The position numbers and the translations under genes were made by a program. From IMG/VR virus record IMGVR_UViG_2690316345_000016: a DNA stretch of 8,088 nt, one strand, 5' to 3'. This stretch comes from a virus. Taxonomy: Duplodnaviria > Heunggongvirae > Uroviricota > Caudoviricetes. The notes under the pieces are model-generated. The model made no database searches, had not been told where the DNA came from, and saw only the letters and a program-made list of their open reading frames with translations. Of this stretch, positions 6,858 to 7,388 are shown one piece after another; position 1 is the stretch's first letter; every line of letters starts with the position of its first letter.

Positions 6858-7388
6858 ATGGCATTATTATCAGAAAAGATCTATATGGTCAGCAATCCAT
6901 ATGATCTCACGGTAACGTTACCCGCCAGAACAATACTTGTAGTAAGTTTTACTTCATCCGGTCAAAGTACTTCATTCGATAATCTACAATCTGATACTTC
7001 AAGGGGATTTACTCTAACGTTAGCAATTGATACAGCAGGTGAAACACTATTCTGTACTCAAATTACTAATGACAGTGTGAGCACCTTTACCTCCGAAGTA
7101 ATCAACCCTGTTATGCATACTAATGAATACGCAAAACTGAAAGGGATGATTGATGAAATTGATCAGGTTATTGCAGTAAAGATTTCTGGTGGTGCGAATT
7201 ACAGCATAACAATTAATAATAAAACATTAGTAAGTGAATCTCTTAATTCTCTTGAATCCATGCGTGCACGTTATGTGAAACGTGCAAACACTTTATGGGC
7301 GAAGATGAATGGAGTTAACGTCTCAGGAAACGGAAAACCAATCAAGAGTATTACCGTGTTTAAACCTAACACATGGAGTACTCGATAA
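6858..7388 (+). CDS. Hypothetical Ser/Thr-rich 176-aa protein between terminase and portal
   Basis: ORF with SD (AAGGA) 8 nt upstream, starting 12 nt after the terL stop. Its stop TAA (7386-7388) overlaps the next ATG (7388-7390) as TAATG. No recognisable motif; much larger than lambda gpW, which occupies this position in lambda. Confidence 0.55.

Follow-up and report, generated by a model that had tools for sequence, protein, structure and literature searches.

The gene at positions 6858..7388 (+) of the window, by which we mean the whole 8,088-nt stretch of viral DNA analyzed here, very probably encodes the head-to-tail adaptor, a head-completion protein, of a siphophage lineage with lambda-like packaging that resides as a prophage in Enterobacteriaceae (probability about 0.85). 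The gene is a so far unannotated member of a known adaptor type, represented by gp4 of roseophage R4C and by the PHROG family phrog_5774. This assignment is based on the intact ORF, the PHROG match, purifying selection and synteny. Family membership, conserved gene order, selection and a predicted domain layout were all established for the window gene itself. An earlier note on this DNA had offered a head-completion protein as one of two alternatives. The phrog_5774 head-tail adaptor family, whose member R4C gp4 is a 12-mer capping the portal, bears out that alternative.

Results

An intact ORF of 176 codons plus a stop occupies 6858..7388 on the plus strand between the large terminase gene (terL) and the portal gene, exactly where the earlier note had placed a 176-aa gene. 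The TGA of the terL frame lies at 6843-6845 and the adaptor ATG at 6858. The spacer between them, read from the sequence, is 12 nt long (6846..6857, +) and contains a Shine-Dalgarno-like AAGGA at 6847-6851. At the other end, the last A of the adaptor stop codon TAA (7386-7388) doubles as the A of the portal-frame ATG (7388), which is preceded by GGAG. Both the 12-nt distance and the TAATG overlap described previously can therefore be read in the sequence. A second in-frame ATG at 7373 is an alternative portal start; in relatives, gene callers also placed the portal start at the last base of the adaptor gene, and in the intact relative L008 the adaptor occupies 6001-6543 and the portal 6543-8036. 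Serine and threonine make up 23.9% of the protein, in keeping with its earlier description as Ser/Thr-rich, and the GC content of the gene is 36.7%.

The window protein matched phrog_5774 ('head-tail joining') with E=3.6e-11 (residues 15-167 on profile positions 27-175 of 177), and the same profile was matched by all 36 aligned homologues (best E=6.4e-18). There are 56 homologues at 44-93% identity in Klebsiella, Enterobacter, Cronobacter, Citrobacter, Cedecea, E. coli and Shigella, and an identical protein was found on 37 E. coli contigs. An intact ORF of 175-187 aa is present in 76 of 78 IMG/VR loci. The public records of the protein are all labelled 'hypothetical'. The statement that no motif can be recognised in it is true of Pfam and NCBIfam but not of PHROGs. 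The Pfam scan of the window protein, 36 homologues and 10 distant members gave nothing significant, nor did the NCBIfam scan of the protein and its relatives. Among the Ig-like Pfam families, Big_2, I-set and FN3 were not matched by the window protein at E<=1, and the relatives gave only stray sub-threshold matches to Big_1, Big_6 and TIG. Phage_connect_1, the family of adaptors of the HK97 gp6 / SPP1 gp15 type, was matched neither by the window protein nor by its relatives.

Searches at the level of single sequences reached less far. When the window protein and the distant members P0068 and P0059 were compared by tblastn with 50,697 phage records, no match was obtained, so that tblastn detects no relative of the enterobacterial form in any cultured phage of that collection; Rhodobacter phages were reached by tblastn with the stand-alone protein P0076 only. 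No match to positions 6700-7600 was obtained by megablast in 5,426 complete E. coli genomes, and a plasmid search retrieved IS ends only. A profile of the C-terminal half, searched against 1.84 billion representative proteins, yielded 25 proteins. Most of these have two domains and 153-181 aa, and a few are short and stand-alone (P0076, 81 aa; P0066, 97 aa). The last two match the C-terminal half of phrog_5774 (1.3e-12 and 1.6e-9, respectively), which indicates that the two adaptor domains are separable modules. P0076 and P0066 represent a rare module of tube domain, loop and hook that lacks the Ig-like domain.

The gene keeps its place across the lineage. The portal gene starts 0-108 nt from the end of the adaptor gene in 80 of 80 IMG/VR loci, and terL ends at most 31 nt from its start in 77 of the 80; in two of the other three (L090 and L091), reading of the ORFs revealed the two-domain gene flush between terL and portal genes that are both intact. 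Intact relatives carry, in this order, the small terminase gene (terS), terL (586-631 aa), the adaptor, the portal (about 500 aa), a protease-capsid fusion and then two small neck-sized genes. Since the adaptor is kept at the terL-portal junction of related loci, it is a core part of the head module and not an insertion or a moron. The gene had been called unknown and inserted, and was thought possibly to be a novel head-completion protein or an accessory gene embedded in the late operon. With its phrog_5774 match and its conservation in all 80 related loci, it is instead the lineage's own occupant of the slot that holds gpW in lambda.

The protease-capsid gene of the intact relatives (Peptidase_S78 plus Phage_capsid, about 600-656 aa) overlaps the end of the portal gene. 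These relatives also have a fibre-like Peptidase_S74 gene of 900-1260 aa, whose place, after the small neck genes and ahead of the major tail gene, is unusual. The two genes are found at 11981-13777 and 14521-17274 in the Klebsiella-like contig L001, with equivalents in L008, L010 and L011.

In comparisons with unsaturated synonymous sites, pN/pS relative to the window copy was 0.20-0.29, indicating purifying selection. Together with the 56 homologues and the proportion of intact ORFs (76/78), these values mark the ORF as a real gene and as more than a product of chance. At 82% identity, pN/pS was 0.28-0.33 for the N-domain versus 0.14-0.16 for the C-domain; the N-domain evolves faster.

A profile of the C-terminal domain, diversified with representatives from the search of 1.84 billion proteins and free of alphaproteobacterial phage sequences, had a single match among all PDB sequences, 8gtd_M 'Head-to-tail joining protein' (E=2.9e-5), and this match appeared only once the profile had been diversified. 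The full-length profile, from which alphaproteobacterial phage sequences were likewise excluded, matched 8gtd_M with E=6.2e-4, and the alignment opens at the conserved V-I-D/N-P boundary, within the last N-domain strand. LAMP1, T4 AGT and T4 lysozyme, which came up when the PDB was searched with the single sequence (phmmer) and with the first, shallow profile (A1), were discarded as noise.

The entry 8GTD shows the portal and adaptor of roseophage vB_DshS-R4C in a C12 complex (Huang et al. 2023, PMC10276861). The R4C adaptor, vBDshSR4C_004 (gp4, chain M), is a protein of 178 aa that forms a 12-mer capping the portal, and its gene adjoins portal gene 005 (PMC10276861). Its N-terminal Ig-like 'attachment domain' (1-106) touches the capsid subunits around the vertex, its two-helix tube domain (107-130 and 149-166) is wedged between the clip loops of the portal, its adaptor loop (131-148) binds the N-terminal helix of the stopper, and its C-terminal hook (167-178) inserts in the portal clip and joins the beta sheet there (PMC10276861). 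According to its authors, the Ig-like domain of R4C likewise lacks a match to classical Ig-like families (PMC10276861).

A bridging member was found in gp5 of Rhodobacter phage RcRhea, a 191-aa protein annotated 'head-tail joining' and encoded directly upstream of the portal gene. It matches phrog_5774 with 5e-60 and, over its full length, 8gtd_M with 2.5e-31, and hhalign of the window's family against it gave Prob 93.9% (E=1.6e-7). The earlier note had proposed a comparison of gene order with related prophages and had set the novelty of the gene against possible kinship with a known head-tail joining protein. Such kinship was found at the profile level, with 8gtd_M and RcRhea gp5.

The N-domain is connected to these proteins in steps. 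By itself, the window N-domain had no significant match to phrog_5774, and hhalign with the N-domains of RcRhea and R4C gave no direct signal. With the N-domains of distant gammaproteobacterial members, hhalign gave E=1.1e-4 (Prob 57%, 70 columns), and the N-domains of those members match the N half of phrog_5774, up to 4.8e-9. From this transitive chain, the predicted fold and the common position, the window N-domain is predicted to be equivalent to the attachment domain of R4C.

Structure prediction and a Foldseek search, both suggested earlier, were carried out and gave an Ig-like N-domain followed by a helix-loop-helix C-half. The AlphaFold (AF2) model, made from a 36-sequence alignment, has a mean pLDDT of 75. 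It contains a seven-strand beta sandwich at residues 7-82 (pLDDT 80-90), in agreement with the view that the protein is prone to form beta strands, and then a helix (84-110), a loop of lower confidence with two short strands, a second helix (129-151) and a disordered tail. The best Foldseek matches of the whole model in the PDB were all Ig-like domains (E about 3e-3) and concerned the N-domain only. Fold searches with the C-terminal model retrieved only generic helical hairpins.

The N-terminal Ig-like beta-sandwich (residues 1-83; 6858..7106, +), the predicted attachment domain on the basis of AF2 and Foldseek, ends at the conserved V-I-N/D-P boundary. The predicted helix 1 of the tube domain (residues 84-110; 7107..7187, +) aligns to R4C 108-130 and to RcRhea gp5. 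In the adaptor loop (residues 111-128; 7188..7241, +), a near-invariant T-I-N-N-K-T-L motif is encoded at 7209-7229, and the columns I119, N120, K122, L124 and E127 are invariant or nearly so in the homologue alignment. This loop aligns to R4C 'YSIEGRSITRTPL', which is the R4C adaptor loop 131-148. Helix 2 of the tube domain (residues 129-151; 7242..7310, +), also predicted by AF2, aligns to R4C 149-165. The C-terminal tail (residues 152-176; 7311..7385, +) carries a conserved K-P-I-K-S-I-T-V-F (7335-7361), and its residues P161, S164 and T166 are invariant across the homologues. The AF2 confidence is low in the tail, as expected of a segment that becomes ordered only upon binding. By its place in the protein rather than by alignment, the tail is the predicted equivalent of the R4C hook.

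The adaptor gene now lies in a dead, decayed prophage remnant truncated by IS elements. The small terminase subunit (4441..5022, +; 193 aa) matches phrog_57 (E=3e-19). A single T inserted at about 5457 divides the large terminase gene, of the gpA type (4937..6845, +), into the ORFs 4937-5461 and 5430-6845, and the GpA_ATPase match ends at profile position 134 in the first ORF and restarts at 134 in the second. At the split (5455-5461), the window reads GTG TTA CTT T GAC GAA, with one extra T in Walker B, where the intact relatives that were checked (L008, L010, L011 and L005) have VLLDEVS in one frame. The lesion is shared with L001, which is 95% identical without indels over 3,632 nt. The CTT TGA C at this site is the same heptamer as that of the programmed +1 frameshift in E. 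coli prfB (RF2), and a GGTG stands three bases upstream of it. A conserved programmed +1 frameshift was considered and dropped. Since terL is a single intact frame in the relatives, the lesion looks like a mutation and not a conserved recoding signal; low-level +1 read-through of the split gene is conceivable.

The lambda-type portal gene (7388..7978, +) is cut after about 196 codons and matches Phage_portal_2 at positions 16-156 of 354 only, as compared with a full portal of about 500 aa in relatives. It is cut by an IS1 end (7974..8088) that is matched at 100% by IS1A/IS1B copies of 4,958 E. coli genomes; the junction was placed by comparison with L001 and L012. In L012, an IMG/VR record with a 100% identical adaptor, the portal gene runs about 865 nt further before it meets the same IS1 end (4950-5057). 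Two such endpoints are the pattern expected of IS1-mediated adjacent deletions of different extent. On the left, the window begins with the end of an IS3-family element (1 to about 147), presumably IS2, that was found in thousands of E. coli genomes. Two different IS elements thus flank the phage DNA. No capsid or tail gene lies within the 8,088 nt. With terL frameshifted, the portal cut by IS1 and no capsid or tail gene in the window, the adaptor almost certainly lacks working partners, and its ORF is most likely a relic that has not yet decayed.

A comparable case is the E. coli copy L003/L004 (5586-11849), in which terL lies in four to five pieces, the portal in three and the capsid gene in two, and in which an adaptor ORF of 181 aa (94 member sequences) is unbroken. 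The idea that decayed prophages keep this ORF by selection was considered and not adopted; the intactness in L003/L004 is compatible with chance (P about 0.5, an estimate).

Upstream of the packaging genes, two abutting genes look like defence nucleases from their sequence matches. The 242-aa HNH protein (211-939, +) resembles the Type IV methyl-directed restriction enzymes of PADLOC (E=1e-7), and the 263-aa protein (940-1731, +) matches PADLOC mREase_II PDLC03212 with its residues 1-154 (E=3.4e-61) and, weakly, DUF6998. Between these genes and terS lie four ORFs of 119-169 aa (2323-2832, 2807-3166 and 3344-3805 on the plus strand; 3872-4231 on the minus strand), which had no Pfam or PADLOC match and are probably prophage cargo. 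The product of 2807-3166 has a lipoprotein-like N-terminus, and that of 3344-3805 resembles a multi-pass membrane protein.

Discussion

In an intact phage of this lineage, the adaptor would do the job of gpW from the gene position of gpW, with an extra domain. On the R4C model, the portal clip would be bound by twelve copies once the DNA is packaged. The portal channel would be lengthened by the tube-domain helices (84-110 and 129-151), and the hook at the C-terminus, with its conserved KPIKSITVF, would be inserted in the clip. A hexameric stopper, and through it the tail, may dock on the conserved TINNKTL loop. The Ig-like domain at the N-terminus would project outwards and touch the capsid subunits around the portal vertex. 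We infer the stoichiometry, the contacts and the role of each segment from R4C.

The slot that the gene shares with lambda W raises the question of whether the protein is a true member of the gpW family (PF02831) that gained its Ig-like domain by N-terminal fusion, its C-half being a diverged gpW. The predicted layout of the C-half (helix, loop or hairpin, helix, tail) is the one expected of gpW, and the domain exists on its own in the 81-aa P0076 and the 97-aa P0066. A weak indirect link runs through phrog_118, a 76-aa 'head-tail adaptor' family, for which the scores are 0.092 (window protein), 7.3e-4 at best among the 26 of 36 homologues that match it weakly, 1.7e-7 (RcRhea gp5), 3.2e-4 (P0076) and 0.031 (lambda gpW). 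Direct comparisons with gpW pointed the other way. PF02831 was matched by neither the window protein nor the 36 homologues nor the 10 distant members, and NF047331 was matched by no family member in a scan in which lambda gpW itself scored 1.7e-12. The PHROG matches of the window protein and its homologues did not include phrog_75, the family of gpW. Comparison by hhalign with lambda gpW and with a gpW alignment gave Prob 0.5-0.7%. For two C-domain profiles (A2 and A4) against the 17-sequence gpW alignment (A3, which is shallow at 75-91% identity), the value was 0.5%, and the alignments spanned only 14-16 columns in the wrong register. The gpW structure was not retrieved by fold searches with the C-terminal model, whose results were uninformative. 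Membership of the gpW family is therefore rejected as an assignment, and a fusion origin appears rather unlikely to us. Since Pfam, NCBIfam and hhalign revealed no sequence homology, we regard the protein as a positional and functional equivalent of gpW.

Within an adaptor reading, the Ig-like domain might have another job than capsid contact, such as anchoring a neck or collar fibre (for example the Peptidase_S74 protein) or binding host glycans. Its faster evolution relative to the C-domain would fit such a job, although the same is expected if the domain only tracks its own capsid protein. The domain shows no detectable similarity to the N-domain of R4C, and in the intact relatives a large Peptidase_S74 gene follows the small neck genes and precedes the major tail gene. 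A role as adsorption aids has often been proposed for the Ig-like domains of phage structural proteins, but the authors of the R4C structure argue against this role, and the equivalent domain in R4C lies against the capsid (PMC10276861). We hold a different job of the domain to be improbable, and slightly more so its most specific form, a 12-fold neck collar of Ig-like domains that anchors the Peptidase_S74 fibre or binds host glycans in place of capsid contact. If such a collar did exist, an adaptor from the gpW slot would serve as the base of an adsorption organelle on the neck. A further alternative is that the gene is an accessory (moron) or exapted gene outside the virion, kept for instance to disturb portal or neck assembly of superinfecting phages. 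The ORF is intact both in the decayed window and in the heavily fragmented copies L003/L004. However, the neighbouring genes of L003 carry about 7 disruptions over about 5.2 kb, at which rate a gene of 546 nt is estimated to escape about half the time. The gene was never seen away from the terL-portal junction in the 80 IMG/VR loci, and it is homologous to a demonstrated virion component, the R4C adaptor. We consider an accessory role very improbable.

As a head-to-tail adaptor, the protein can be given a name in hundreds of records of E. coli, Klebsiella, Enterobacter and Cronobacter in which it is 'hypothetical'. With the name come a relative of solved structure (8GTD) and the prediction of an Ig-like attachment domain, and the main value of the finding lies in annotation; the understanding of head-tail joining is unchanged by it. 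The slot between terminase and portal holds at least two adaptor forms, the 68-aa gpW and the two-domain form of 153-191 aa, and a stand-alone tube domain of 81-97 aa occurs rarely. These forms provide a small example of domain accretion on a neck protein.

In lambda, gpW joins the filled head and is needed before gpFII and the tail can join. That the slot holds the 68-aa gpW in lambda, as had been pointed out, is correct, W lying between A and B. Like gpW (PF02831; phrog_75 'head-tail adaptor Ad1'), the window protein is encoded between the large terminase and portal genes, with stops and starts that overlap or nearly do so. It differs from gpW in its size, which is 2.6 times larger, in an additional Ig-like domain at the N-terminus and in a sequence without detectable homology to that of gpW. 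With the adaptors of the HK97 gp6, SPP1 gp15, T5 p144 and RcGTA g6 type, it has in common the functional class, that of a dodecameric ring between portal and stopper. The genes of that type usually follow the capsid gene, whereas the window gene precedes the portal gene. In T5 p144 and Avs-1 gp11, the 'attachment domain' is inserted in the helical bundle, in contrast to the N-terminal Ig-like domain of the window protein, and these two were dropped as relatives on account of this difference in architecture. The names of the R4C adaptor domains were borrowed by its authors from RcGTA (PMC10276861).

RcRhea gp5 and its Cronusvirus relatives share with the window protein the family (phrog_5774), the two-domain size and the position directly upstream of the portal gene; in RcRhea a large capsid gene follows the portal. 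Sequence identity to these proteins amounts to about 18-27% and is limited to the C-terminal half. In RcRhea, an endolysin gene and a small ORF separate terL from the adaptor gene, unlike the window, where the adaptor gene begins 12 nt after terL. The differences from R4C are of several kinds. The R4C adaptor was observed as a dodecamer on the portal clip, whereas for the window protein the ring and its contacts are predicted. Most of the window N-domain lacks detectable sequence similarity to R4C, and the tail after helix 2 is longer (25 versus 12 residues). R4C is an alphaproteobacterial, RcGTA-like siphophage, whereas the window derives from an enterobacterial prophage with a lambda-type gpA terminase and portal. 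Across this distance, the two adaptors are of almost equal length (178 aa in R4C and 176 aa in the window), and the adaptor gene lies directly before the portal gene in both. They share the order of an Ig-like N-domain, a helix, a conserved loop, a helix and a C-terminal tail, which in the window protein is predicted, and their sequences are similar at the profile level over a stretch that opens with the final N-domain strand and takes in both helices.
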